This document shows, in pieces, positions 10,511 to 49,447 of a stretch of DNA of 64,000 nt (within the stretch, counting starts at the first letter, position 1; every line of letters starts with the position of its first letter). A model generated the notes under the pieces. That model ran no database searches. It had not been told where the DNA came from and was given only the letters and a program-made list of their open reading frames with translations. The stretch comes from an uncultured Chloroflexia bacterium. Its GTDB lineage: Bacteria > Chloroflexota > UBA6077 > JACCZL01. Made by a program: the position numbers and the translations under genes. The stretch is taken from positions 64,001 through 128,000 of the forward strand of contig CAVXYC010000027.1 of assembly GCA_963765765.1 (NCBI GenBank), written 5' to 3'.

Positions 10511-11898
10511 CTATTGCTCTAGCGAAGCAAACAGGTTGTTGAAACCTTCGGCCAGCGTCGGATGCGCAAAGATTCCATTCCGCAAGGCCTGCCAGGGTAG
10601 ATTGCCCATCATGGCAATCTCGATCATCGACATGATCTCGCCGCCCTCTATCCCCAGTGCCGCGAAGCCGAGAATTCGGTCGGTACGAGCGTCGACGACC
10701 GCCTTCAACAGTCCCCGAGGCTCGTCTACCTCCAGGGCTCGAGCGACGCGAGACATGGGCATGGAGGCAACGCGGATCTCCATCCCGCGCTTTCTCGCCT
10801 CGGTCTCAGTCATTCCGACCCTTCCAAGCTGTGGGTCGATATAGACGGTGTATGGAACGAGTCGGTCCGTAATTGAAGCGGTTCCGCCATCGATGAGATT
10901 GGTCTTGATGACTCGGAAGTCGTCGTAGGAGATGTGCGTGAATTGTGGTCCACCCTTTACGTCGCCCAGCGCGTAAACGCCAGGAGCGCTCGTCTCGAGT
11001 CGATCGTTGACCACGATCTCCCGGCGCTCGTTCACTTGCACCCGGCAGCTTCGAGGTTGAGGGTCTCTGTGTTGGGCGATCGACCTACGGCCACAAGGAG
11101 GTGCGAGCCCGAAACGCTGCGCTCTCCAGAGGGTAACCCCAGATGCATGTGAATCTCGCCATCAACGGATTCGACGGACTGCGCATCTGCTTGATAGATC
11201 AGCTCGATCCCGTCTTGCTCCATGATCTGAGCGACTTTTTGGCAGACATCATCATCTTCCCGCGCAAACAATCGCTCGCCTCGCTGGATCACCGTTACGC
11301 GGCTTCCGAGCCGGCGGTAGAGCTGGCCGAATTCGAGTCCGATGTACCCGCCGCCCAGTACCAGAAAATGATCGGGTACCGTATCGAGCTCTAGCACTGA
11401 CGAGGAGTCGAGCCAGGGGACTGTGTCCAGCCCCGCAAGCTTTGGGCGCGCGGGGCGGCCGCCGGTATTGATGAAGATCAGGTCGGAGTCTATCGCCGAT
11501 TCACCACCGCCGCTGAGCTTCACGCTCATTGACCTGGGCCCGGTGAAGCTCGCCTCCCCACGTACGATCTGAACCCCACCTGTCTCGATGGACTTTTCGC
11601 TGCCGCTCCGAAACTGATCGACGATGTTGCGCTTTCGGTCGCGCACTTTTTGCATGTCGATCTCAATGGGTCCAGTGATGACGCCAAAGTCCGCGCCCCT
11701 ATGAGCCAGATATGAGACTCGCCCACTTGCGATCAGCGTCTTCGTGGGTGTGCACCCAACGTTGATGCAGGTACCACCTACGTGTTCCCGTTCCACCAAC
11801 GCGACGCGGCGCCCCTTTTTCGCAAATGCCGTAGCAAGCGGTCCGCCCGCTTGTCCCGAGCCGATGATGACGACGTCATAGTGTGTTGAGGAAGCCAT
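10511..11898 (-). CDS. Pyridine nucleotide-disulfide oxidoreductase (MerA/RclA/Lpd-like); frameshift near 11040
   Basis: [21 protein letters not shown] redox motif, [20 protein letters not shown]-terminal FAHPTLAE; split over ORFs 11032..11922 and 10511..11041. Confidence 0.88.
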
Positions 11899-12051
11899 GC
11901 CACACTCCCGGAGCCTGCTCAAGCATTCGGCAAGCTCAGCTACAATTTTGAGTTCTCAGTGATCGGCAACCTGCCGTTCTATCGAACAAGTCAATAGTAG
12001 TACCGATGACCGTAGCGGCCCCTCGGCCAGCGCATCCAAAGGAGCACTTTT

Positions 12052-16578: not shown

Positions 16579-19500
16579 TCAGGGGACGGACAAGACATAG
16601 CTTGCCGTCATGAGGTTTGAATTGACGTCGAGCGTTTCAACCCAGATCTTATAGAGTCCCGATGTGGGGAACGTGTAATCGAACACGATGTTCGGTCCAA
16701 ATTGCCCCTGGGGCGGTCGGGCACTGGGCGCGTGCCCGTGATCGCCGGCGGCGTCAGGAAGGCGTCCGTGGAGATGCGCAAATGAGCTCTGTTGCTCACC
16801 GATAACCACAACGTGTGCCGCGGCGCCGAGATACGGACGGAGGTCGACGCGTGGCACACCCGTTCTCGAGTCATCCGCTGCCACGCGAAGCTGTACGGGC
16901 GCTCCCGCTGTCACGCCGGCCGTGTCCTCCAGGTACAGTCGAGTCAGGCCGAATGTCTTTGGTGACAAATCCTGCTCCAACGCCAGGCCCGGGGTCATCT
17001 CTGACCCGACGTTGAGATCCTGTCGCCCAACCGCGACGCTGCCATCGGCACGCTCGGACTCCGTGTAAACGAAGAATTGACCGTCCCGCGGAAAGCTTAC
17101 GTCGAGCGCAAAAGTCCCTGGCCCACCGGTTGCCTGCGGGTGGATGTGCTGAAAGTTGCGCATGTCATCATCCACGACGATGGCATGGACCAGATGGCCA
17201 TGACTCAGCACAACGTCATCCACGGGCTCGGAGGTCGCCGGGTCCGAGAGGTGGAACGTGAGCTGCGCTGGCGTGCCAGCCGTGAGCGGCGGAAGCGGAT
17301 CCATGGTCCATACGGGGGACGATGTTCCGATCGGCGCATACGTTCCGTTCTGAGCAAAGGCGCTGTGGCGCGAGAACGTCAGCGCCACGAACCCAACGGC
17401 GAGAGCAACCAGTGCTATCCCCGCGAGGTAGGCATATTCCCCAATTCGTTCGCGGACGGGCGGATGGAGAATATCCGCCGTTGATCGCGGTCGACGGAAA
17501 CCGCGCAATCGGAGCGCGTTCGTCACAACGCTGACGCTGCTCATGGCCATGGCGGCCGCGGCAAGCACGGGATTCAAGAGAACCCCAAACGCTGGGTAGA
17601 GTGCGCCCATGGCGACCGGAATCAGGACCACATTGTAGGCAAAGGCCCAGAAGAGCCCTTGCTTGATCACCCCCACCGTTTTGCGTGAGAGCGCGATAGA
17701 GCTGACGATCCCGCGCAAATCGCCGCCGACGAGCGTGATGTCAGATGCCGCCATGGCAACGTCTGCACCCGTTCCGATGGCAATACCAAGATCTGCTTGA
17801 GCCAGAGCGGGCGCGTCGTTGATGCCGTCGCCAACCATCGCGACGACGTGTCCTGCTGCCTGGAGCTCGCGAACTCGCTCAGCCTTCTCGTGCGGCAGGA
17901 CCTCGGCCAGCACGTCGGTAATTCCGACCTCCGCGGCAATTGCGTCGGCGGTGGCCCGATTATCTCCAGTAAGCATGAAGACGTCGAGCCCCAGCGCCCG
18001 GAGCTGCCGTACGGCGTCGGCCGATTCTGGCTTGAGCGTATCGGCCACGCCAATGACACCGATCAACATGCCGTCTCGCGCGACGAATAGTGGCGTCGCA
18101 CCATTCCGTGCCATGCGCTCGGCATGCTCTTCGCCAACCGTGAGGTCCACACCCTGTTCCTCGAGCAGCGCCCGATTCCCAATGATTACATCGGCACCCC
18201 GGACGGTCGCCGAGACGCCGAGTCCACTCAGCGCCGTGAAGGAGTTCGCCGCGGGGAGGCTCTGCTCTAGCTCTCGTGCGCGATTGACAATCGCCTGACC
18301 TAGCGGGTGTTCTGAGCCGACTTCCGCCGCGCCAGCGATCACCAACAGCTCTTCCTCCGAGAGTCCCAGAGATCGAATCGCTGTCACTGAAGGCGCGCCT
18401 CGCGTCAGGGTCCCGGTCTTGTCAAGGACGATCGTGTCGATCTTGCGCGCCTGTTCCAACGCCTCGCCGCCACGGATCAGCACTCCGAGCTCGGCCGCCT
18501 TGCCCGTGCCAACCATGATGGCAGTTGGCGTAGCAAGACCGAGCGCACACGGACAGGCGATGATCAGCACGGCGATTGCAACCTGAATCGCCAGGGTCAG
18601 ACGTGGTTCGGGACCAAAACTGAGCCACGCGACAAAAGCCAGCGCAGCAAGTGCCAGAACAACGGGGACGAAGTACGATGCGACTTCATCGGCCAATCGC
18701 TGGATGGGCGCCTTAGATCCCTGAGCTTCTTCAACAAGCCGTACGATCTGCGCGAGCGCCGTGTCTCGCCCCACTCGAGCTGCTCGGAACACGAACGAGC
18801 CGGATGTGTTCAGTGTTGCCCCGATAACCTGTGTCCCCGCCTGCTTTTCGACAGGCAGGCTCTCGCCCGTGAGCATGCTTTCGTCAACGGCAGAACTACC
18901 ACTGAGAACGATGCCGTCCACCGGAACCTTCTCGCCAGGGCGAACTCGGATCTCATCGCCAACTTGCACTGACTCAATCGGCACGTCGTGCTCGACGCCC
19001 TGACGGATCACTCGAGCGGTGCGAGGCTGCAGTCCCACGAGCGCAGTAATTGCCGCGCTCGTCTGTCCTTTGGCGCGGGCCTCCAGCCAACGCCCCATCA
19101 AGATAAGAGCGACAATGATGACCGAAGTCTCGAAGTACAGGTGCGCGGGAAATCCCCATCGCGCCGCCAGACCCGGCCATAGCGTGACGAACGCACTGTA
19201 CCCAAACGCGACACTGGTGCCCACGGCCACCAGCGTGTTCATATTCGTCCCGCCGTGACGTCCGGCCGCCCATGCGGCGCGATAGAACTCGGCCCCCGCC
19301 CAGACCTGGACGAATGTAGCCGCGATCAACAGCACCGGCCCCCAGATCGCCATATCGATGTGAATCGGCAGATACATGATGGCCATCATGGCCACGCCAA
19401 TGACCAAGCTGACTATCCACTTTCGGCGCAGATCGGCGACCTCACGGGCGCGCTCCTCAATGAGAGGGTCTACAAGTGGTGCACTAGTCTGAGATTGAGC

Positions 19501-19740
19501 TGGTTCAACGGGGGTAATCCCGTAACCGGCCTTTTCAACCGCCGCGGTCAAAGACCCCAGCTCCACCAGATTGGGATCGAAAACGACGGTCGCTTTTTCG
19601 GTCGCGAGATTGACCGACGCGTCATCCACGCCGTCAACGCGCTTGAGCGCTTTCTCAACGCGCCGAACACACGACGCGCAGGTCATTCCCGAGACACGGA
19701 ACGTAAGGTCCCGTGCGTGGGGACTCGATAGGTGACTCAA
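16579..19740 (-). CDS. copA: Cu(I)-translocating P1B-type ATPase with long C-terminal extension
   Basis: [44 protein letters not shown]. Confidence 0.95.
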
Positions 19741-19752
19741 CTGCCATAACGA

Positions 19753-20019
19753 TTACCGTCGCGCTAACGTATAGAGCTCCGTGAGCTCACGGATCATGTC
19801 TTCGGAGCGCCCGGCCTCGAACCCCTCCGGGACACATCCCTGGAGATGCCCCTCGACCAGTACTGCCTCGAGCTTGTGGATGGCCTTCTCGACCGCATAC
19901 GTTTGCTTCAAGACGTCCACGCAATACTGATCTTCCTCGATCATCTTGCGGATACCGCGCAAATGCCCCTCGATGGAGGCCACGCGGTTCAATACATCTT
20001 TCTTTTGTGCTACTGCCAT
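19753..20019 (-). CDS. csoR: Copper-sensing repressor CsoR family
   Basis: RVASIEGHLRGI, YCVDVLKQ, GHLQGCV (C-H-C ligands). Confidence 0.92.
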   Translation of the reverse strand: MAVAQKKDVLNRVASIEGHLRGIRKMIEEDQYCVDVLKQTYAVEKAIHKLEAVLVEGHLQGCVPEGFEAGRSEDMIRELTELYTLARR

Positions 20020-20029
20020 TGCTAATCCC

Positions 20030-20049
20030 ATCCCCCCTGGGAGGGGGTC
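20030..20049. promoter_or_regulatory. CsoR-type operator
   Basis: ATCCCCCCTGGGAGGGGGT C-tract/G-tract pseudo-palindrome immediately upstream of csoR. Confidence 0.7.
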
Positions 20050-20339
20050 AGCAATATGCTAACACATGTTTCGAGAGCGGCGTAGATCTCGACGGGCCTA
20101 CGTCAGGCTGCGTTCTCGAGGCTCCGTATGCCCAGGCTCAGCAGCATCAGCACCCGCGTCTTTTCCCATCGTCACCAAGCGCCGGACTACGACACCCGGC
20201 TCGGACGCCGAAGCGTGGCAGTAACGGCCGCGGTGATGCCCTCGAGCCGGAACCGCTCAGTCTGCGCGGTGTAGAACGGCTCAAGCCAGTTCGCGGCCAT
20301 CCCCCACCTCCCGACTCACCAACGGGTGTCCCATACTGA

Positions 20340-20367
20340 AGTTCCGATAACCCCCATTATCGGAAAC
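20340..20367. other. Xer/dif-like recombination site A
   Basis: AGTTCCGATAA-CCCCCA-TTATCGGAAAC (11-6-11 inverted arms). Confidence 0.65.
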
Positions 20368-20708
20368 AAGCAAGCGCGCAGCAGCGGCACGGACCCGCAA
20401 TCGTGGCTATGGGCGAAACCCTATTAATGGCTCGACCGGGCTACATCGAACGCTCGCTCTACGCGCTGGCCATCAGGGAATGCTTCAACTATTGTGAAGT
20501 CTCCCCTGAGCGCCTCGAGACAGTATTTTCCCGCGTCGATCTCTTTCCGTGAGCGCACGCCGAAGCGACGTAGGAGCGGCAGGGCCGGCACCAGCCCTGG
20601 ACTGCGTGCTAACAGTAAAGGACGAGGACTCAGGGAACAATCACCTAGTGCCGCTAGCCCGCGACGAGGGTCAGCATCGAGTGCGTCGCGCCATGGCGGC
20701 CAGCTAAC

Positions 20709-20924
20709 TCACGGATATCGAATCTTTAAGAGACAGGCATCGAAGGCTTGTTCCGATAACCCCCCTGTTATGCGAACCGCGGGGAACGCGGAACGGCGAA
20801 ACGTTGATCGAGCGCGTGCATCGAAGTAGGTGTAGATCGCGAACGTACCAAACCATACAACCCCGATCATCACGATCCCGATGAGAAAGGCGACATTCGC
20901 CTTACGCTTGAGCGCACGTTTCAA
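20709..20924 (-). CDS. Small single-TM protein downstream of cydB
   Basis: KRALKRKANVAFLIGIVMIGVVWFGTFAIYTYF; start and end uncertain, reading frame runs through site B. Confidence 0.35.
   Translation of the reverse strand: MKRALKRKANVAFLIGIVMIGVVWFGTFAIYTYFDARARSTFRRSAFPAVRITGGLSEQAFDACLLKIRYP
20749..20778. other. Xer/dif-like recombination site B
   Basis: TGTTCCGATAA-CCCCCCTG-TTATGCGAACC (8-bp spacer); right arm reverse complement GGTTCGCATAA differs by 1 nt from the E. coli XerC arm GGTGCGCATAA. Confidence 0.6.
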
Positions 20925-20942
20925 CAGGTCATAGCTGCTCCT

Positions 20943-21974
20943 TCATGGCGATCGGTGCCGAAGGTCGGGTGCGCTCGCCGGATTTCGGCCCTTGAAGACC
21001 ACGAACAAGAGCCAGAGCGATGGCAGCAACAGCCCCATGCCCGGCACAAGCGTCCAGAGCACGAAGCGGAGCGTGGGCGCCGGTGCCGCCGAGTCGATCA
21101 CGGTCACATCGGGATAGATAATGTATGGCCATTGGGCCAGCGCCCAGCCCACCACCAACAGGATCACCTGGCCGACCGCCAGTGCTCGTGCCGTCGCGAA
21201 CCGATGCCTCCACATGGCCAAGGCGGACAGCGGCGCCAGCAGGATGCCACCGGCCACCACGGGTGCCGCCCGCAGGCTGGTCAGCCCTGTCCAGAGCCGT
21301 GGAGCTTCGACATAGGTTAGCAGCAGCGTCCCTATTGAGATGAGGCCTGCCGCCAGCCATGCGCCGAGCGCTCGGCGGCGGAAGTCCCCGCGCAGCTCGC
21401 CCTCGGTCTCCAGGGTCAGATAGACGGCGGCCAGATAGGCGCAGAGCGCGAGGGCCAGGGCACCGATCGCCAGTGCGAGCGGGTCGAGCCAGGCCCATGC
21501 CGCTTCCGGCGCCACCCGCCCGCTCTCGACTCGGATCCGCCCGTTCGAGACGGCGCCCAGGCAGACCCCGAGGAGGAACGGCGTGATAACGCTCGCGCCG
21601 CCGAAGACGTGCCCCCAGCTCAGGCGCGCGCCGATCGCCGCGTGTCCGTGCGCGCGGAACACGAACGCCGCCCCTCGCAGCACGACCCCCAGCAGGACCA
21701 GGTGGAAGGGGGCGAAGAATGCCACGCTCAGCGCCGCGAAGGCGGCCGGGAAGCAGGTGAAGAGCAGCACGATCAGGAAGATCAACCAGACGTGGTTGGC
21801 CTCCCAGACCGGCCCCATCGCGGTCGCGATGGCCGCGCGCTGCTTCCGGGCGCGTGGCCCACGGGCAAACAGGTCCCAGACTCCCCCGCCGAAGTCGGCG
21901 CCGGCCAGGACCGCATAGGCGACGAGCGTCCCCAGCGCGACGACGCCGACGACTTCGGGGAGGTACTCAGGCAT
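20943..21974 (-). CDS. cydB: Cytochrome bd ubiquinol oxidase subunit II
   Basis: YAVLAGADFGGGVWDL, MGPVWEANHVWLI, VLRGAAFVFR, GWALAQWPY. Confidence 0.95.
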   Translation of the reverse strand: MPEYLPEVVGVVALGTLVAYAVLAGADFGGGVWDLFARGPRARKQRAAIATAMGPVWEANHVWLIFLIVLLFTCFPAAFAALSVAFFAPFHLVLLGVVLRGAAFVFRAHGHAAIGARLSWGHVFGGASVITPFLLGVCLGAVSNGRIRVESGRVAPEAAWAWLDPLALAIGALALALCAYLAAVYLTLETEGELRGDFRRRALGAWLAAGLISIGTLLLTYVEAPRLWTGLTSLRAAPVVAGGILLAPLSALAMWRHRFATARALAVGQVILLVVGWALAQWPYIIYPDVTVIDSAAPAPTLRFVLWTLVPGMGLLLPSLWLLFVVFKGRNPASAPDLRHRSP

Positions 21975-23331
21975 GGACGGGTGGAGCCTCTGGATCGGCC
22001 GCTGCGTGCTCCATCGGCTCGTCGCCACGCGCCAGGCGACGGAGCAGGATGATGAGGGTGACCGCCAGGCCGGCGTAGAGCAGGCTAAACCCGGCCAGGG
22101 ATATCCCGACCCCGCCGGCGGGCGTGACAGCGTCGGACGTGCGCATGACCCCGTAGATCACCCAGGGTTGGCGACCAACTTCGGTGACGATCCAGCCGGC
22201 CTCCAATGCCAGGAATCCGAGCGGTGCAGAGAGCACCAGCACCCAGAGGAGCCTCCGGCGGGCGGCCCAGTCGAGCCCGCCGCGTCGGCCGCGCCACCAC
22301 GCCCACCAGTACCAGAGCGCCACCCCCATCATCTCGAAGCCAGACCCGACCATTACCTGGAACGCCGGATGCACGATGCGCGACTCCGGCCACTGGTCGC
22401 GTGGGAATGCCTCCAGTCCGAGCACCTCGGCGTTCGGATCGTGGGCGGCCAGGACGCTGAGCAGGTACGGGATCTCGATGGCCCAGGACGTCTCCCGGGT
22501 ATTCGGGTCCGGCCAGCCGAAGATCCGCAACGGCGCGCCGCGCTCGGTCGTGAACTGGCCTTCCAAGGCTGCCAGCTTGGCTGGCTGATGCTCGTGTGCC
22601 CGCTGGGCCAGGAAGTCGCCAACGATCGGCTGGAGCACCGCCGAGATGCCGCCTAAGAGCATGGCGATAACGACGGCGAGGCCGTTGTAGCCGGCACAGT
22701 TCGAGCGTCGGTTCTTGAGCAGCGCCCAGGCGTAGATACCGGCGGCCGCAAACCCGACCGCCTGATACGTTGAGAGCGTCGAGTGCGCGGCCATCAGGGG
22801 CCAGGCCGGGTTGAAGAGCGCAGCCATCGGGTCGATGTTGATCGGCATGCCGTCTGGCCCCAGGTCGAAACCGACCGGCTGCTGCATCCATGAGTTCGCC
22901 GAGAGCACCAGGATGCCGGAGGCTGCTCCGCTGAGCGCAACGGGCCAACCACATAGCCAGTGAGCGAACGGTCTCAGGCGATCCCAGCCGTACAGGTACA
23001 GCCCGAGGAAGATCGCCTCGATGAAGAACGCGTACCCCTCCAGCGCGAAGGCCGGCCCGATGAGCGGCCCGGCGAACTCCATGAAGCGCGGCCAAAGCAG
23101 GCCGAGTTCGAACGAGAGCGCCGTGCCCGAGACGGCGCCGATGGCGAACAGAACGGCGGTGACCTTTGCCCAGGTCTTGGCGAGACGCAGGGCATCCCGA
23201 TCTCCCACCCGCAGCCAGCGGCCCTCGGCGATCAGCATCATCAGCGGCATCGCCATCCCGACCGCCGCGAAGACCATGTGGAACGCGAGCGAGACCTCCA
23301 TCTGGATCCGGGCGGCGGTGAGCTCGCTCAC
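21967..23331 (-). CDS. cydA: Cytochrome bd ubiquinol oxidase subunit I (short Q-loop)
   Basis: AFHMVF, GAVSGTALSFELG, FALEGYAFFIEAIFLG, ANSWMQ, QPAKLAALEG, GWIVTEVGRQPW. Confidence 0.95.
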   Translation of the reverse strand: MSELTAARIQMEVSLAFHMVFAAVGMAMPLMMLIAEGRWLRVGDRDALRLAKTWAKVTAVLFAIGAVSGTALSFELGLLWPRFMEFAGPLIGPAFALEGYAFFIEAIFLGLYLYGWDRLRPFAHWLCGWPVALSGAASGILVLSANSWMQQPVGFDLGPDGMPINIDPMAALFNPAWPLMAAHSTLSTYQAVGFAAAGIYAWALLKNRRSNCAGYNGLAVVIAMLLGGISAVLQPIVGDFLAQRAHEHQPAKLAALEGQFTTERGAPLRIFGWPDPNTRETSWAIEIPYLLSVLAAHDPNAEVLGLEAFPRDQWPESRIVHPAFQVMVGSGFEMMGVALWYWWAWWRGRRGGLDWAARRRLLWVLVLSAPLGFLALEAGWIVTEVGRQPWVIYGVMRTSDAVTPAGGVGISLAGFSLLYAGLAVTLIILLRRLARGDEPMEHAAADPEAPPVHA

Positions 23332-23559
23332 GGCGGCGATCCTCCGAAGGGGGCAAGAGAGGCGGGGACCGCGAGCCGCCCGCGCACTCGATGCCACTGA
23401 TTGCCGTGGATATGGTCCCACAACGCTACGCCTGGGCGGGGCTGGAGAATCCCCCCAAGGGGGCGGGAATTCCCCTCTCCCGTTGTGAACGCGACGCCTG
23501 TGGGCGTCACCCATTGCTCACCGGGGCTCACTGCACTGCCTGAGCCTCCGCTCCGGAGA

Positions 23560-23760
23560 TTAGGAGTTGGTTGGCAACCATCATGCCTGTGGCCACGTTC
23601 GACCCGTCGAGTGCCAATCTCGTGCCCATCGCCACCTGAACCGGCACGCCCCATGAGGTAGACAAGGATCGGCACCGTCAGGATCGAGCCGCAGGCACCA
23701 AGCGTCCCCGGCAACAGGCCGATCACGACCCCAAGCCTCAGAGCGAGCACGGCGTGACCC
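23560..23760 (-). pseudogene. TauE/SafE sulfite-exporter N-terminal remnant
   Basis: LGVVIGLLPGTLGACGSILTVPILVYLMG resembles the TauE GxGGxIxxVPxLxY motif, then degenerates; boundaries approximate. Confidence 0.55.
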
Positions 23761-23789
23761 AACTCAGGCACGATCCGCTGATTCCAGTT

Positions 23790-24119
23790 CGGGAGCAAGC
23801 TGAGGGGCCAAGGTCGGGCGCAGCAGGTCGCAGGCGTCTGCGATGGCTGGGGTAGGCCAAGCCGTAGAAGTTTCTGTTCGCTTCGCGGCGGGCGGTCACC
23901 ATACCCACCTCGCGCATAACGGTCGGGTGCTGCGAGACATTCGGTTGGCGGACGCAAGCGCCGCGACCAACGATTAACGGTGCCCTCTCCGTCTCTGAGC
24001 AGGGGGATGATCGCCAGCCGCTTCGGGTCCGCCAGCGCTTGGCACAGCAGAGCCTGGCGCTCGAAGAGCGCCCTCGGCAGGTCGAGCCGCGGGGAAGATG
24101 CGCCGGATTGAATATTCAT
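23790..24119 (-). pseudogene. ArsR/SmtB family regulator remnant
   Basis: LFERQALLCQALADPKRLAIIPLLRDGEGTV, then frameshifted pieces (NVSQH...MREVGMVTARREANRNFY); boundaries approximate. Confidence 0.65.
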
Positions 24120-24176
24120 GATACCGACGGCTGTAGTAGCAATGGTTCAACTAACTGTGTCTGCAAGAATAGTATT

Positions 24177-24204
24177 CGTTCCGATAACCCCCATTCTCGG
24201 AACG
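24177..24204. other. Xer/dif-like recombination site C
   Basis: CGTTCCGATAA-CCCCCA-TTCTCGGAACG; same spacer and orientation as site A. Confidence 0.65.
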
Positions 24205-24240
24205 ACCAGCTCCGGATGTGAACTCGGAGACTGATTCCTT

Positions 24241-24279
24241 GGTTCCAGATAATGGCCTATTGACGTGGTTATCGGAACC
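24241..24279. other. Degenerate Xer/dif-like site D
   Basis: GGTTCCAGATAA-16 bp-TTATCGGAACC; intact arm reads GGTTCCGATAA on the minus strand. Confidence 0.45.
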
Positions 24280-24693
24280 ACATTTTCGTGCGTCGATCAT
24301 TTGCCAAAAGCGGCCGGCGAGAGATTCCCAGTGACGGGCGAGACTGGCTACGCTAATCCGGCTTAGCGCTCACGCTAGCCCAGGCCGTCTCAATACTGGC
24401 CGGGCGGGGTGGTCACTGAGACATTGTTTACTTGACGGGTTGTGAGACCAAGCGTCGAGCTCGGCCGCGGGGGTTCAAGGACAGTCGGAGCTCCGTCCAA
24501 CAAACGGCCGTTTTGTGAGACGTCGGGATCCGCGCCGCGCGGACGACGCCATCCGAGCGCGGTCTTGAGCTCGCGGTGTCCAGACTGGAGAGCGAGATCG
24601 CCCCGAGGGGCCGGCGCTGCACAACGGGATCGATCATCCCTCCCATCCTCCAATTCATTGTATGTAACGGGCGCTCCCCGCTCAGGACATGCG

Positions 24694-25575
24694 TTACTGA
24701 CGAAGCTCTACCCAGCCTTCGCGGATCCGCGCCGTGAAGCTCGGCTGCGGATACACTGACGGACCGTCGAGCAGCTCGCCGGTGCACACATTGAACCTCG
24801 ATCCGTGCCAGGGGCACGTGATCACGTCACCGTCCAGCTCGCCTTCCGACAGTGGGCCCCCCAGGTGAGCACAGCTTTCGGCGATGGCGGTAACCTGATC
24901 GCCTCGTCGGAAGAGCAGGATCCGCGCGCCGTTTACCTCGCCCTTCCGGACCTGCCCATCTGGCAGATCTGCCTCCAGCATGACGCGCTTGAACTCGGGC
25001 GGTAAGCTGGTTCCTTTTGCGTGATCGACGCCGATTCCCTCGCTAAAAACGAGCGCTCCGCCGAGATAGGCGGACACATTTGAGATGGCAAACCCAGTCA
25101 TCGAAAGAACAATGCCGCGGCCTCGATGTCCTGATTTACGCGCCGCCATCGATGCGAGATACGCCATTGTCACCGATCCATTCAGAAGACCATGAACCAG
25201 ACCTATTCGCCGCGATGATCCGGATGTGTATTGCCAGTCGTTCCAGCCGGCGACGATTGCCGCGGCTGCGCCCGCTAGACCAACGGCCACCGTTGAGTCG
25301 CCAACCTTGCTGAAACTGCGCATCGAGCTCAGCTCCAGTAAATCGGCCAGAAACGTGACGCTCCACGCCCCGATTGGAACGTCCGTGAGAATGGGATGCA
25401 ATGGATGGCCGAGCCAGGTACCGTGGAGCACGTTCCTGGCACCGCTGCCAAGCTTCGTCGTGACGTCGCCGACGACTTGCGACACCCGATCGGCGAGACC
25501 ATCGAGCTGCTCCAAACTACCGATCCGCTCGGCGATCGACATCGGCAAGTGTGCCGCGTTTCTGGACATTGCCAT
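24694..25575 (-). CDS. DUF2231 membrane domain + Rieske [2Fe-2S] protein
   Basis: LHGTWLGHPLHPILTDVPIGAW, GLVHGLLN, CAHLGGPL...CPWHGSRF. Confidence 0.88.
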   Translation of the reverse strand: MAMSRNAAHLPMSIAERIGSLEQLDGLADRVSQVVGDVTTKLGSGARNVLHGTWLGHPLHPILTDVPIGAWSVTFLADLLELSSMRSFSKVGDSTVAVGLAGAAAAIVAGWNDWQYTSGSSRRIGLVHGLLNGSVTMAYLASMAARKSGHRGRGIVLSMTGFAISNVSAYLGGALVFSEGIGVDHAKGTSLPPEFKRVMLEADLPDGQVRKGEVNGARILLFRRGDQVTAIAESCAHLGGPLSEGELDGDVITCPWHGSRFNVCTGELLDGPSVYPQPSFTARIREGWVELRQ

Positions 25576-25699
25576 GTTCCCTCCCACGCTGAACCCGACA
25601 GAGCGGCGCAATACGCATGCCAAGCCACCCGAAAGTGTGGGTGGATTGACAGCCCGCCGAGCGCCGGTCGCCTACAATTTCTGCGTTGGGAGTTGAGCC

Positions 25700-25795
25700 A
25701 TGACCATGGATGAGAACGACGTCTTCATCGATCTAGCACTGGAAATCGCCCAGGACGAATCGCCGTCCGAGCTGGAGCCAGTCGAAGGGGAGTAG
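25700..25795 (+). CDS. Putative 31-aa acidic small protein
   Basis: MTMDENDVFIDLALEIAQDESPSELEPVEGE; GGGAG RBS, upstream TACAAT, GC hairpin right after the stop. Confidence 0.4.
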   Translation: MTMDENDVFIDLALEIAQDESPSELEPVEGE

Positions 25796-25837
25796 CGGCC
25801 GGCAGGTCGTTGACGACCCACCGGCCCGAGCTGCGTA

Positions 25838-27157
25838 TCAGGGCCTCAGAACGACGGCCGTAAACTTCTCAGGATCGAGATAGGTCTCGACCACCCGCTG
25901 CACGTCCGCCGCAGTCACGGCGCGTATGCGATCGCGGTGGTCGTCAAGGGTCTGGCCGTTGTAGGCCAGGGCACCCAGGGCCATCGCATCGTCGGCGTAC
26001 TGCTCAAGGCCCACGACGAATGTCCCAAGAAGATACCTCTTGATGGCTTCGACGCTGGCCTCGGTGATCTTGTCCCCGCGCATATTGCGGACCTGTTCGA
26101 GTGCGATGTCCCGCAATCGTTCCGCGTTTCCGGCTTCCGTGCCCGCCGCGATCGACCAGTCGCCGGTCTCACGAAACGTCATCATCCCGCTACCCACGGA
26201 ATAGGCCAAGCCATAGCGATCGCGCACTTCGCCGAACAGGGGTCCGCTGGGGAGACCCATGATGCGGTCGTAAATCAGCAGAGGATAGTAGTCAGGGTGA
26301 AGACGACCAACAGCCGGCACACTCAACACAACCTCAGCTTGATCGGACCCCGCTTTAACCTCTTTCCAACCAGGCTTTGCCTCAACCGGTGGAAGCGGCG
26401 TGCGGACAGGACGCTGACCCGACGGGACGGCGCCTAGCGCATTGCCGACCATAGCCACGGCATCTTCGTGCGAGACGTTACCGACGACCGAGACAATCAT
26501 GTTACTGCCGAGAAAATGCTGAGCATGAAACTGGCGCAGCGCATCAGGTGTGAGCGTTTGCAGGCTCTCGGCATCGCCAGAAGGCGTCCGTCGAGCGATC
26601 TCATGACCGTAGAGCTCCTCAAGCTGCACGTCCCGAATCCAGCGCGCCGGGGCGTTCTTTCGCCTCGCCACGTCATCCAGCGACGTGCGACGCGCACGCT
26701 CGATGAGGTCATCGGTGGATCCCGAGCTCATCAAAATATCGGCCAGCACGTTGAGCGCTTCAGGAAAGTCGGGACCACGCGCCACCGTGCTGAGCGAGAA
26801 ATTCTCCCAGCCTGCTCGAGTTCCCAGCATGCCACCCGTGATACTGAAGTGGCGCAGGACGTCTCCAGGAGTCGGCCGGGTGGGCGTGCCCTGGAGCATG
26901 AGCTGCTCCCAGAGCTTGGTGGCGCCCGCCTCATCGTCGGCTTCATCCCGGGAGCCGCTGCCCACCAGAACTTGCATGGCGATCACATCAGCGCCTTCAC
27001 GTTGTCGCGTAAGGACGACGATCCCGTTGGGTAACACGGTCTGCAAAGAGTCGGCGCCACCCGGGGCACTACCGGGCATAACTGCCATCGGCAAAGTGAC
27101 GCTGGCAAACACGTATGGAGCGGCGAAGAGAGCCGATGTTGTGCTGAAGACAGTCAT
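25838..27157 (-). CDS. M16 family peptidase, non-catalytic partner subunit
   Basis: LPNGIVV, GSRDE, GATKLWEQ (HxxEH lost), LFGEVRDRYGLAYSV, VTAADVQRV. Confidence 0.88.
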   Translation of the reverse strand: MTVFSTTSALFAAPYVFASVTLPMAVMPGSAPGGADSLQTVLPNGIVVLTRQREGADVIAMQVLVGSGSRDEADDEAGATKLWEQLMLQGTPTRPTPGDVLRHFSITGGMLGTRAGWENFSLSTVARGPDFPEALNVLADILMSSGSTDDLIERARRTSLDDVARRKNAPARWIRDVQLEELYGHEIARRTPSGDAESLQTLTPDALRQFHAQHFLGSNMIVSVVGNVSHEDAVAMVGNALGAVPSGQRPVRTPLPPVEAKPGWKEVKAGSDQAEVVLSVPAVGRLHPDYYPLLIYDRIMGLPSGPLFGEVRDRYGLAYSVGSGMMTFRETGDWSIAAGTEAGNAERLRDIALEQVRNMRGDKITEASVEAIKRYLLGTFVVGLEQYADDAMALGALAYNGQTLDDHRDRIRAVTAADVQRVVETYLDPEKFTAVVLRP

Positions 27158-47886: not shown

Positions 47887-49447
47887 TGAGAGTCGCTCCC
47901 CCCAGGAGTCAATCGAAACGCCCCATACCGTCGGCCGCTACCTGATGCCGAAAGCTCTATGGCCCCGGTTGCGGTGATATTCGCCAATCGATCCACCTGT
48001 TGCCGTTTTCGAACATCCATGATTACGACTGCGCTTTGCCCGTAGCGCGGCGTATTCCCGGATACCATCGGCATTGAGCTTCGCCACTTCATACCGCAGG
48101 CCACGCGCCTCGAGCAGCATACGTAACGCCTTCAGGTCGTTCCCTCCGCCGGTGAGCGGCTCTTGCTCCAGAACCTCATCGAGAAATACGAGATCGCCCG
48201 ATTGGAAGAGAGCCCTGGCGCTATCTGCGAGCGAGTAAAGCGGAGCATTTGTCCGATCATCCGCCAGTACTTCCTGGTAGTACCAGTGAAGGTGAATGAG
48301 CGGGAAGCATACAGCGAGCACGCCGAGACTGGCTCGCACGGTCCGCGCCGACGGAAGTCTCTGTGCAATCCAATCGATTGCTACACCGATAGCAATGAAG
48401 CAGAACGGCAGCAGCGGTATAAGGTATCGCCCGCTCAAAATGGGTCCGTAACGCGGGATTGAAATAGGGGAGAACCAGGACGGCTGACGCGCAAAACAGG
48501 AGCGGCAGCCACATATTGCGGGCTGCCAGTAGCCCGAGACCGAGAGCAGCCGCGAGACTGTAAATGAAGCGCGATGGACTGTTGGCGATATCGATGGTGC
48601 CGCTGAGCAGCCGTGCAAGCGACTGTAGCAACGCTTGCATATTCGTGAGATAGAAGGTCAGATCCGCTCGCTTGCCTTCGGTGTAGCCCTCCTGCAAATG
48701 CTGAGCATGGACGAACGAATAGAAGTTATTTTGAACGTTGTAGAGAATCATGTTGCTGTAGCCGATAAGCACCCCGGCTATCGCACCCAGAATCCATGGG
48801 CTGACGAGAAGTTTCGGCCGACCAATCAACAGCGCCAAGCCTAGACCGGGTGCAAAGGCAATGACGGAAATGTGTGATTGCATCGCCAGGGCAAAAAGAA
48901 ATCCCGCGGCGACGAGATACCGGCCGTTGTCGCGCTGAATCGCCCGTAAGAGCACCCAGACCACGAGCATGAGCAGCAACGGGGTCGTTCCATTGGAACG
49001 CGCCGTATGACTGGTGATGATGATGTGGCCACCAGATGTGAGCATGAGGGCAGCGCCCACGAATCCGGCCCATCGCCCCGCGATCTCCCGGCCGATCAGG
49101 TAGGTGAGCCCGACCGTGGCCGCTGCGAGAATCGTGGCGACCAGTCGTGGGGCCCAGTCGGAGATCCCCACGACTTTAAACACAGCGGCGAGCAGGTAGC
49201 TCCACAACGGACCGTAATACGAATCCACCGCGGTGAGCGGAAGAATCTCACCGCGCGTGATCGAAAGAGCCCAGAGGATTTCCTGAAGCTCATCCGTCAG
49301 CCTCGGTATGTCCCAGAGGTACGGAAGCCGCAGAATGAATGCGAAGAGAGCGAGACCGCCTGCGATGAGGGCATCGCGGGCGCCCTCCGACGCGATCATA
49401 GGACCAGCCCTGGGACGAGCAGCGCTTTGCGCTAGGACACCAGCCAC
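47883..49447 (-). CDS. GT39/ArnT-like membrane glycosyltransferase (frameshifts)
   Basis: LRLPYLWDIPRLTDE, PLTAVDSYYGPL, SHTARSN, GRYLIPLLP; paralog of 56049..57740. Confidence 0.75.

Follow-up and report, generated by a model that had tools for sequence, protein, structure and literature searches.

A cytochrome bd oxidase operon in an uncultured Chloroflexia bacterium lies between the csoR and Rieske genes with short inverted-arm sites on both sides of it, and the question raised by this locus is what these sites are and how the operon came to lie between them. An initial annotation of the 64,000-nt stretch of DNA analysed here (the window) had proposed that four dif-like sites bracket a GC-rich arsR'-tauE'-cydA-cydB block, and that a tyrosine recombinase acting in trans moves this block as a gene cassette. 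The best explanation of our results, to which we would assign roughly even chances, is that recombination takes place at the sites and that they belong to a lineage-specific system of gene cassettes, served by a Xer-kind tyrosine recombinase encoded elsewhere in the genome. The features of the locus, by position in the window, are as follows.

16579..19740, minus strand: resident copA-type P1B ATPase gene (PF00122, PF00702, PF00403), its DNA 73.6% identical to that of the same-genus genome G001
19753..20031, minus strand: csoR, copper-sensing repressor (PF02583), the left resident neighbour, syntenic with G001:C331
20341-20366, plus strand: site A, GTTCCGATAA-CCCCCA-TTATCGGAAA, nhmmer E 2.4e-07, lying 309 nt upstream of csoR
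20367..20749: A-B module, 383 nt, GC 0.598, no supported gene
20709..20924, minus strand: ORF of 71 aa, downstream of cydB, with a single predicted hydrophobic helix and a 3' end that crosses site B
20750-20777, plus strand: site B, GTTCCGATAA-CCCCCCTG-TTATGCGAAC, with an 8-nt spacer and two arm mismatches
20943..22028, minus strand: cydB, cytochrome bd oxidase subunit II (PF02322, E 1.8e-66)
21967..23514, minus strand: cydA, cytochrome bd oxidase subunit I (PF01654, E 5.9e-143), given as the longest ORF
23328..24146, minus strand: decayed leader region upstream of cydA, with a weakly TauE-like fragment and, over two frames, what may be an ArsR-like helix-turn-helix
24178-24203, plus strand: site C, GTTCCGATAA-CCCCCA-TTCTCGGAAC, nhmmer E 1.5e-07
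24241-24279, plus strand: site D, GGTTCCAGATAA-N16-TTATCGGAACC, a second site class with a 16-nt spacer
24694..25623, minus strand: Rieske/DUF2231 gene, resident neighbour on the right, with 92% identity to metagenome contig L078

The four sites can be read directly from the sequence, and the claim of dif-like inverted arms around a 6-nt spacer describes a real structure. The core consensus, GTTCCGATAA-CCCCCA-TTATCGGAAC, is a 26-base palindrome with a 10-6-10 layout, in which the inner GATAA/TTATC is conserved at 0.82-1.00. Sites A, B and C are repeated in direct orientation; for A and C this had been noted before, as had the identity of their spacers. Both A and C fold into stable DNA hairpins (site A, as single-stranded DNA, at -7.0 kcal/mol, z -4.6). 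Site B folds into no stable hairpin (z -0.74); it keeps an intact left arm and C-tract next to the degenerate right arm TTATGCGAAC, and nhmmer matched only its left arm and spacer (E 0.16). Site D had been taken for a degenerate copy, a reading that we rejected: it represents a second, conserved site class whose pattern has 12 matches, 11 of them in the genome and one on metagenome contig L093, and a recognisable core site lies 36-40 nt upstream in 10 of the 12. The gap between C and D is 37 nt, and the pair forms a composite (core+D) like that found at the right-arm side of arrays.

The block enclosed by the sites differs in composition from its surroundings, in agreement with the initial annotation: GC is 0.670 in the B-C module and 0.688 across cydB-cydA, against 0.606 in the window and 0.61-0.62 in both flanks. 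The gene content attributed to it held only in part. Both cyd genes are supported by Pfam, and the true start of cydA probably lies further in, since the Pfam match begins only at residue 68; the TauE-like fragment (Pfam E 0.0026, 17.9 bits) falls below the cut-off of 32.6, and the ArsR-like piece, read by eye from two frames, has no Pfam or NCBIfam support. Pfam and NCBIfam searches with the 71-aa ORF gave no match. The A-B module is possibly an empty or decayed cassette, and near-identical pieces of it occur in contigs from two soil or rhizosphere runs. In G001, copA-csoR lies 440 nt from the Rieske gene, compared with 4680 nt here, and the locus has neither sites nor cydAB; the block whose ends had been said to be marked by the sites is thus missing there. 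CydA was found in none of the nine other genomes of the family (E<=1e-40), and the closest DNA match of the cydAB block is in G011, a member of another family (76% over 2348 nt; CydA protein 78% identical; GC of the G011 locus 0.74). Together with a GC of 0.69, these findings mark the cydAB block as foreign.

We then considered how far the sites extend beyond this locus. Searching the window for the 10-mer with at most one mismatch gave eight matches; two of these (40849 and 59347) are lone half-sites and the remaining six fall within 20341-24278, which confirms the earlier statement that the window holds no further full copy. Shuffled windows gave a mean of 2.28 matches and reached eight in one of 100, and taken alone this window statistic is weak. 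The genome statistic is strong: 45 sites with at most four arm mismatches occur in the genome and six in the reversed genome, and nhmmer at E<0.01 returned 34 loci in the genome and none in the reversed-genome control (best control E 4.2). Most of these 34 sites (24) are grouped in eight clusters. The system extends beyond the locus, which is one of at least eight arrays, and variable, mostly single-gene modules lie between the sites. All 16 adjacent site pairs are co-oriented regardless of the direction of the genes between them. The arrays hold from 2 to about 9 sites and are many and dispersed on large chromosomal contigs; their intervals carry, among others, many PF04392 solute-binding genes, ars genes, PFK and cydAB. 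Compact, co-oriented arrays of mostly single-gene cassettes are found on contigs C23, C27 (the contig of the window) and C7, and on C23 a site stands in each of seven consecutive intergenic gaps, every interval having a single gene (ABC_sub_bind, PFK, an unknown gene, SnoaL, an unknown gene, ABC_sub_bind). A manual reading of the matches placed a core+D composite at the right-arm side of seven of the eight arrays, six composites being complete and one (C1:19788) having only the left arm of D.

Several observations indicate that homology ends at the sites. A 1.24-kb ABC_sub_bind (type-1) cassette occurs in four different neighbourhoods, and in three of its four copies the limits of homology lie within 5 nt of the sites; in the fourth, on C27, homology begins 163 nt inward of the left site. 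Flank families are combined mosaically across sites. In one ABC_sub_bind subfamily the 3' site occurs in either orientation with unrelated linkers, which shows that the mosaic is also the work of gene conversion or simple duplication among paralogues. A metagenome contig of about 92% identity, L078, runs from a glyoxalase gene and the site C27:45973 through a GNAT cassette into the Rieske flank, and its homology stops at the outer edge of the site, a synteny break at the site itself. This contig should be interpreted cautiously, however, given that it is only 2.4 kb long, that a chimeric join at the 26-bp repeat is possible, and that its right-hand break lies about 140 nt past D, away from any site.

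If the sites do serve a cassette system, two inverted 10-nt binding arms would flank the conserved 6-nt overlap CCCCCA, in which strands would be exchanged. Since the sites of an array all point the same way, any two of them could excise the intervening DNA as a circle bearing one site, and the circle would re-enter at another site, most likely the core+D composite at the right-arm side. In the window, two pieces would have been added in this manner between the resident csoR and Rieske genes: from A to B a remnant of 383 nt, and from B to C the foreign arsR'-tauE'-cydAB block. Against this interpretation, no recombinase is linked to the sites and site B is degenerate. Circles, deletion joints and reads of an empty site were likewise not obtained; of the ~3.8-kb circle between A and C, proposed earlier on the grounds of two direct sites with identical spacers, neither the circle nor its deletion joint was seen.

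The 250-kb contig that carries the window has no PF00589 match and no recombinase gene, so any enzyme would act in trans, as the initial annotation had supposed. Candidates for such an enzyme exist: the genome contains three Xer-type recombinase genes, and no serine recombinase was found in it. Two of the genes, XerD-like (C29) and XerC-like (C10), score below the equivalog cut-offs. The third starts about 185 nt from site C30:95083, is frameshifted in the assembly, and scores 162 bits with the XerC model and 161 bits with the XerA model, both below cut-offs; it has orthologues in G001 (87%, with one internal TAG) and G029 (69%), with no sites near either, and homology with G001 ends 154 nt short of site C30:95083.

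One may postulate an alternative scenario, unlikely but deserving serious consideration, in which the palindrome is a REP-like selfish or structural element that spread through intergenic gaps, especially behind amplified ABC_sub_bind paralogues, with the cassette appearance as a by-product. It would then act at mRNA ends or as a cruciform at most, and be a place where RecA-dependent or illegitimate rearrangements are frequent, a role that we consider doubtful though credible. REP repeats alternate in BIMEs, and their hairpins are kept by compensatory changes. Like them, the core site is a short (26-nt), extragenic, species-specific palindrome, often behind genes: exact pattern matches occur in two of 40 relatives and a few degenerate copies in G001, about 18 of the 34 sites adjoin 3' ends of ABC_sub_bind genes, and the subfamily with sites in either orientation carries them behind the stop codon. 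Yet the tandem ABC_sub_bind paralogues of G001, with overlapping stop and start codons, have no palindrome, from which it follows that this family did not carry the site at its 3' ends ancestrally. The hairpins of A and C would suit such an element, but pairing is not preserved: in 28 ungapped sites, picked by likeness to the consensus and therefore yielding biased figures, we counted 49 one-sided arm changes against two compensatory ones, and mismatches per position came to 0.057 for the left arm and 0.139 for the right, with the spacer in between at 0.113. One-sided, uncompensated changes are the behaviour of a protein site rather than of a hairpin, and the spacer, mostly CCCCCA, is conserved where a REP element would have its loop. 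The stem also lacks the T-tract that follows the GC-rich stem of an intrinsic terminator, and a terminator scan flagged none of A, B and C, only a 6-pair stem inside D. The deletion in L078, or a chimeric join there, could also be explained by 26-bp repeats; on the other hand, clustered copies are co-oriented with whole genes between them rather than alternating within one gap, the copy number (34) is low, and the three matches to the Y1 transposase PF01797 (C18, C20:197.9 kb and C23:350.6 kb), the RAYT partner expected of REP/BIME elements, lie far from the sites.

A second alternative, which we regard as improbable, is that the palindrome and core+D are operators of a dimeric transcription factor with a scattered regulon, to which the cyd operon and csoR-copA would belong at this locus. 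The one-sided arm changes point to a protein-binding site and would agree with this, as would several positions: A is upstream of csoR, C overlaps the sole promoter-like match for the minus-strand cyd operon and supplies a -10-like GAGAAT within its right arm (GATAAT in the consensus arm), core+D composites stand upstream of diverse genes (PhoX, amidohydrolase, Exo_endo_phos, SBP_bac_5), and the single copy in G029 lies between divergent genes. A manual reading of ORF maps, however, places at least seven of the 34 sites between convergent genes, 18-60 nt past stop codons, and a polar conserved spacer with uniform array orientation regardless of gene direction is not a feature of operators. Synteny breaks at sites and foreign cargo would also be left unexplained. 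The initial annotation had named an operator, with cydAB synteny conserved in relatives lacking the sites, as the outcome that would speak against it; G001, nearly without sites, has neither that synteny nor cydA, the reverse of that outcome.

Improbable as well, finally, is the idea that each module is a passenger with 10-nt terminal inverted repeats TTATCGGAAC ... GTTCCGATAA and the sites the abutted ends of transposase-less mobile insertion cassettes, each 'site' being then two neighbouring ends around a duplicated 6-nt target CCCCCA. On this view a target duplication would account for the constant spacer, the stacking of modules in tandem would be accounted for as well, and lone 'left arm + CCCCC' half-sites do exist (e.g. 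C1:182033, C30:97328, C32:217233 and site B), but every array opens with a full two-armed site rather than a single end, most have the special core+D composite at the right-arm side, the half-site-containing repeats on C4, C5 and C11 lie within duplications of at least 3.9 kb, no autonomous element with such ends was found, and IS110 copies and Y1 genes are distant from the sites.

With a cassette system as the preferred interpretation, three known systems invite comparison. A chromosomal dif site pairs inverted arms of about 11 nt, with ATAA/TTAT at their inner ends, with a centre of 6 nt; the Xer recombinases of the host bind and cut it, and it is present in single copy at the replication terminus, where GC skew turns. 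The core sites resemble the dif sites of XerA, XerH and XerS in their near-symmetric arms and 6-nt spacer, but they occur in 34 copies, and cumulative skew falls steadily in the window and across its contig; the skew check suggested earlier thus revealed no turn, and the core sites are not a chromosomal terminus or dif. A crude search found no canonical dif site.

Integrons offer a closer parallel in arrangement. Their attC sites are 57-141-nt imperfect hairpins with R/L boxes and extrahelical bases, and attI is a complex site with extra binding sites. As in integrons, cassettes here are co-oriented, tightly packed and mostly single-gene, a given cassette can be found in several arrays, accessory functions make up the cargo, and a more complex site stands on one side of the array, core+D in place of attI. 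In contrast to integrons, the sites are 26-bp near-perfect palindromes that need no bulges, and the arrays are many, short and dispersed. IntI was not found among the five recombinases scanned (best TIGR02249 score 93.8 bits, cut-off 265), and no recombinase lies beside any core+D composite, the adjoining genes being unrelated.

The initial annotation had likened the system to the dif modules that XerC/XerD move in Acinetobacter, and according to the available portions of two accounts (PMC6449649, PMC13141974) this likeness holds for the inverted arms and for modules in varied contexts. Both systems have short dif-like sites with an inner palindromic ATAA/TTAT and more variable outer positions, and small accessory-gene modules that recur in different contexts, end at sites and depend on an enzyme in trans, here a putative one. 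Arm asymmetry is also common to both, given that one arm of the Acinetobacter pdif sites is the better conserved; their 6-bp centre is the more variable part in the available portion of PMC6449649, whereas the spacer is conserved here. Orientation differs as well: in Acinetobacter, as far as the corresponding portion of PMC13141974 describes it, sites alternate (C/D then D/C) and the sites bounding a module are inversely oriented, so that a single module cannot excise, whereas every adjacent pair in the present genome is direct. The system described here is further distinguished by near-symmetric arms, by its host, an unrelated soil bacterium in which the sites lie on large chromosomal contigs, and by the second site class D, part of a composite that stands to one side of the arrays and may there mark the point at which cassettes enter.

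Reading the window sequence directly, we found all four of the sites that the initial annotation had described. Sites A, B and C are dif-like core sites of 26–28 nt, each built of an arm, a spacer and a second arm, and lie mutually in direct-repeat orientation; D belongs to a second site class. The sites and the two cyd genes, in window coordinates, are as follows.

20341-20366, site A, GTTCCGATAA-CCCCCA-TTATCGGAAA, sequence read directly
20750-20777, site B, left arm as in A, 8-nt C-rich spacer, right arm degenerate
20943-22028, cydB, identity as in the initial annotation
21967-23514, cydA, identity as in the initial annotation
24178-24203, site C, GTTCCGATAA-CCCCCA-TTCTCGGAAC
24241-24279, site D, class pattern GGTTCCAGATAA-N16-TTATCGGAACC

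Besides these four sites the window holds two lone half-sites with one mismatch each, and the statement that it contains no further full copies therefore stands. Arm matches in the window number 8 against a shuffle mean of 2.28, a weak statistic in which 8 was reached in 1 of 100 shuffles. The stretch between B and C is GC-rich, as had been noted (0.670, and 0.688 over cydAB, versus 0.606 for the window), and is bordered by copA and csoR on the left and a Rieske/DUF2231 gene on the right (Pfam). Its content had been given as arsR′-tauE′-cydA-cydB, of which cydA and cydB hold, tauE draws a weak Pfam match below cut-off, and arsR is not recovered: no ArsR match was found by Pfam between cydA and C even at E ≤ 10, so the arsR label goes back to a by-eye reading of two frames. 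Genes split into two adjacent frames are numerous in the source assembly, G000 (MIP, C7:38384-39241; PhoX, C7:45513-47499; sigma-70, C7:44161-45089), with one inside the window (Pyr_redox, 10511-11922); the splits may stem from indels in the assembly or mark genuine pseudogenes.

The genome scan suggested in the initial annotation revealed a genome-wide family, the window itself being C27:64001-128000 of G000. In G000 (6.49 Mb, 33 contigs, 91.8% complete, 6.9% contamination), nhmmer with a profile built from the sites themselves found 34 loci at E < 0.01 and none in the control, whose best E was 4.2; perfect 9-nt arms with a 4–10-nt spacer occur at 8 places versus 0 in the control, and sites with up to four arm mismatches number 45 versus 6 in the reversed genome. 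The core consensus is GTTCCGATAA-CCCCCA-TTATCGGAAC. Among 28 ungapped copies, which were picked by consensus likeness and are biased accordingly, the mismatch rate per position is lowest in the left arm (0.057), higher in the spacer (0.113) and highest in the right arm (0.139), and arm changes comprise 49 that are one-sided and break pairing versus 2 that are compensatory. Folding predictions for single-stranded DNA give −7.0 kcal/mol for A and −8.5 kcal/mol for C (z about −5) and no stable fold for B. Judged from the sequences, the pattern is that of a putative protein-recognition site with a fixed polar centre, rather than of a selected hairpin. Site orientation follows no pattern of GC skew (11 loci agree and 6 disagree, by our own count), and a search for the canonical dif site by a core motif gave one poor, unusable match.

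Eight clusters account for 24 of the 34 loci, and within them adjacent pairs are co-oriented in 16 of 16 cases, regardless of the direction of the intervening gene; weaker profile matches occupy additional intergenic gaps. At C23:452,364-458,935 there is a site in each of seven consecutive intergenic gaps, with one gene per interval. Two site pairs lie 9–10 nt apart (C23:455220-455277 and 456162-456217), the second member having the spacer YCCGCC, and may represent slots without a cassette or another subclass of site.

Site D had been taken for a degenerate copy of the core, which proved wrong: the D pattern defines its own class with 12 matches, 11 in G000 and one on a metagenome contig. A core site precedes D by 36–40 nt in the same orientation in 10 of the 12 (6 good, 4 degenerate). 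By our own reading of the site maps, such composites stand on the right-arm side of seven of the eight arrays (two each on C7, C27 and C1, one on C23); six are complete, and that at C1:19788 has D's left arm only. C and D in the window are the right-arm-side composite end of their array. Single sites lie beyond a composite at C27:51247 (composite at 48702) and C1:183139 (composite at 191213), and lone composites occur also on C6 and C10.

Some further features accompany D. The string CTTGACA(A) follows 19–22 nt to its right in 8 of 12 cases (for example C7:45216, C6:22550, C1:3220 and, on a metagenome contig, L093:2123), and the window's own D has TTGCCA (24311-24316) in place of TTGACA; a promoter −35 box was considered and rejected, as no acceptable −10 stands behind it in the alignments. 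Downstream of several D sites is a second repeat family of ~80–90 nt, partly in inverted pairs ~130 nt apart, which looks MITE-like and includes the hairpin CCCGGTTTATCACCGGG followed by CAATATGCATCGGGATGAC (C1:3282-3540, C1:190961-191121, C6:22415-22497, C6:36471-36552, C15:607758-607832, C20:11220-11317, C23:468613-468700 and C32:296750-296960). An Rfam scan of eight array loci returned one tRNA alone and no match to this repeat family. A tRNA gene at C6:22070-22143 lies ~440 nt downstream of the composite C6:22578-22679.

A Pfam scan of 170 ORFs placed many ABC_sub_bind genes (PF04392; 67 matches in G000, many fragmentary) around the arrays, and about 18 of the 34 sites adjoin the 3′ end of such a gene. 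Other modules carry two ArsC-type phosphatases, an aquaporin fragment, methyltransferases, an MDMPI-family (DinB-like) protein, phosphofructokinase, a SnoaL-like protein, an AurF-like oxygenase, an ECF sigma factor and, in the window, cydAB. Left- and right-flank families mix mosaically across sites. One 1.24-kb cassette, bounded by two sites, with 57 nt between the first and an ABC_sub_bind gene on the other strand and 24 nt between that gene and the second, recurs at 82–89% identity in four neighbourhoods (C23:452,364; C23:457,689; C27:45,973-47,318; C1:191,293-192,542); its homology ends at most 5 nt from the sites in three copies, and the C27 copy begins 163 nt inside the left site. In another ABC_sub_bind subfamily the 3′ site occurs in either orientation with unrelated linkers, so gene conversion or ordinary paralogue duplication also feeds the mosaic. 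In G001, a relative of the same genus, ABC_sub_bind paralogues follow one another directly, the stop codon of one overlapping the start of the next, and have no palindrome; the site is therefore no ancient 3′ trait of this family. An ABC_sub_bind cassette with two sites (550707, 551909) has a phage-type integrase and a small terminase subunit as neighbours on its two sides (C20:548503-552899) and may belong to a prophage or border on one. A 97%-identical stretch of at least 3.9 kb is present in three copies on small contigs (C4:24126-28000, C5:25760-29629, C11:72468-76335) and may reflect strain heterogeneity or contamination (estimated at 6.9%).

Of 40 relatives, two (G007 and G029) have the exact site pattern, in one copy each; it is absent from G001, where a looser search and the profile gave a few degenerate copies. 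The distance from copA-csoR to the Rieske gene is 440 nt in G001, on one contig, versus 4680 nt in G000. The G001 locus is empty and has no site between csoR and the Rieske gene; the intergenic DNA there is too diverged to align with G001, so the exact insertion ends are unreadable. Empty alleles were also sought for two other arrays: the flanking genes of the C7 array sit on different G001 contigs, and a G001 LigB contig considered as the counterpart of the C23 array turned out to be orthologous to another G000 locus, on C2. At E ≤ 1e-40 CydA was found in none of the nine other genomes of the family; the nearest homologs, in other families of the order, are 78% (G011), 76% (G022) and 71% (G014) identical. 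The cydAB DNA is 76% identical to that of G011 over 2348 nt, and the G011 locus has a GC content of 0.74 and none of the sites. The distribution of CydA, the G001 locus and the DNA match to G011 together indicate that the cyd block is a lateral acquisition of the G000 lineage. The unpublished genome G006 underlies none of the claims made here.

Among public metagenome contigs, 19 loci contain the 18-mer, of which two are true sites (contigs L093 and L078); the other 17 are without a right arm and were rejected as chance matches. L093 carries a core-plus-D composite. L078, ~92% identical to G000, reads in order a glyoxalase gene, site C27:45,973, a GNAT cassette, a D-like element and the Rieske flank (C27:88,419 onward), so that 42 kb of G000 is absent; part of this is the window's initial 20 kb, whose synteny with G001 marks it as native to the genus. 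The left break is the outer edge of the site and the right break falls ~140 nt past D. L078 looks like a site-associated deletion with a different cassette; the contig is short, however, and the 26-bp repeat may have produced a chimeric join. In public genome contigs, 41 loci with perfect arms and any 6-nt spacer, from many unrelated phyla, were taken to be uninformative chance matches, given how numerous hairpins are; the CCCCCA spacer occurs in none, and several are A-tract/T-tract terminators. Viral contigs gave 9 matches, none with a right arm, and no phage att site. Twenty public runs each contained at most 0.27 of the sampled words; the contigs of four, compared with window 17500-26500, are short low-depth pieces. 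None of them spans or skips the interval from one site to another, and the joints listed for them, 13 in number, fall inside copA or cydAB with short sides. For window 23888-24038, a sequencing run of a different study yielded a contig that is identical and gap-free.

From the site anatomy, the enzyme would be a trans-acting tyrosine recombinase of the Xer type. G000 has no PF00239 match for a serine recombinase and 21 PF00589 matches, none on C27. Three genes have Xer architecture, one XerD-like (C29:40995-42026), one divergent XerC-like (C10:276983-278098) and a third on C30 (93979 to about 94900), all scoring under the NCBIfam equivalog cut-offs. The third begins ~185 nt from site C30:95,083 and is frameshifted in the assembly; among 38 further genomes of the order, its orthologues occur in G001 (87%, with one internal stop, TAG) and G029 (69%) only, with no sites nearby in either, and G001 homology around the gene ends 154 nt before the G000 site. 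The gene adjoins a small putative zinc-finger gene (C30:93657-94900, G001:C647, G029:C15); the pair aligns between G000 and G001, and in G029 the recombinase alone aligns, its open frame being 211 aa and perhaps also interrupted. No Y1 transposases or IS110 copies were found near the sites; three IS110-family matches with identical scores (C16:28272, C30:283948, C32:95394) are probably one active insertion sequence.

The best-supported reading is that the sites are recombination sites of a gene-cassette system. The observation in the initial annotation is confirmed, and its interpretation is partly supported. DNA between direct core sites would be excised as a circle, the fixed CCCCCA serving as the overlap for strand exchange, and the circle would re-enter, probably at a core-plus-D composite. 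One may instead postulate a REP-like palindrome merely marking rearrangement hot spots; the absence of compensation, the conserved centre, the shared orientation and the arrays with one site per gene gap argue against this. A transcription-factor operator would suit site C, which overlaps the sole promoter-like match for the cyd operon (window 24193-24222, minus strand), whose −10 (GAGAAT) comes from C's right arm; with GATAAT as the same-strand sequence of the consensus arm, a −10 box facing the left-arm side could be supplied by any of the sites. However, convergent genes enclose 7 of the 34 sites, and an operator leaves the synteny breaks and foreign cargo unexplained. Abutted ends of insertion cassettes without a transposase fit poorly, as arrays open with full sites and a search of G000 for an autonomous element found none.

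Extending the cassette reading, we tentatively propose, with rather less than even confidence, an integron-independent cassette platform in which dif-like 26-bp cores with a fixed polar overlap, scattered core-plus-D docking sites and a trans-acting recombinase bring about shuffling and capture in this large-genome soil bacterium. Docking composites would occupy a dozen positions in the chromosome, recombination may be the work of the housekeeping Xer pair or of a third Xer paralogue, and the system would shuffle the large solute-binding-protein gene family and capture foreign operons (cytochrome bd oxidase, arsenic resistance genes).

Through gene-cassette systems bacteria trade ready-made functions, and these systems are a main route for the movement of adaptive genes; to our knowledge, good descriptions exist for only two site-specific kinds, namely integrons and the plasmid-borne dif modules of Acinetobacter. 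Integrons require an adjacent IntI and long attC hairpins. The G000 arrays resemble them in their co-oriented single-gene organization and in the complex site on one side, but are dispersed, with no recombinase gene alongside, no adjacent IntI and no long attC hairpins. In Acinetobacter dif modules, sites alternate in orientation, so that single modules cannot excise, and the 6-bp centre is the variable part (PMC13141974, PMC6449649). Site layout, unequal arm conservation and modular cargo are shared with G000, whereas the G000 sites are direct and their 6-bp centre is conserved. In a full-text literature search, covering mostly listings and abstracts, cassette arrays with dif-like sites in direct repeat were not described beyond these two systems. 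If the sites are active, they would show that cassette arrays dispersed over the chromosome of an ordinary soil bacterium can be organized by short Xer-type sites and that cargo can extend to an entire respiratory operon, and they would offer a simple, testable 26-bp substrate for asking how Xer-like enzymes came into gene capture; direct orientation would also permit the single-module excision that is impossible for dif modules. The platform, if true, would add to integrons and Acinetobacter dif modules a third way of moving gene cassettes by site-specific recombination.
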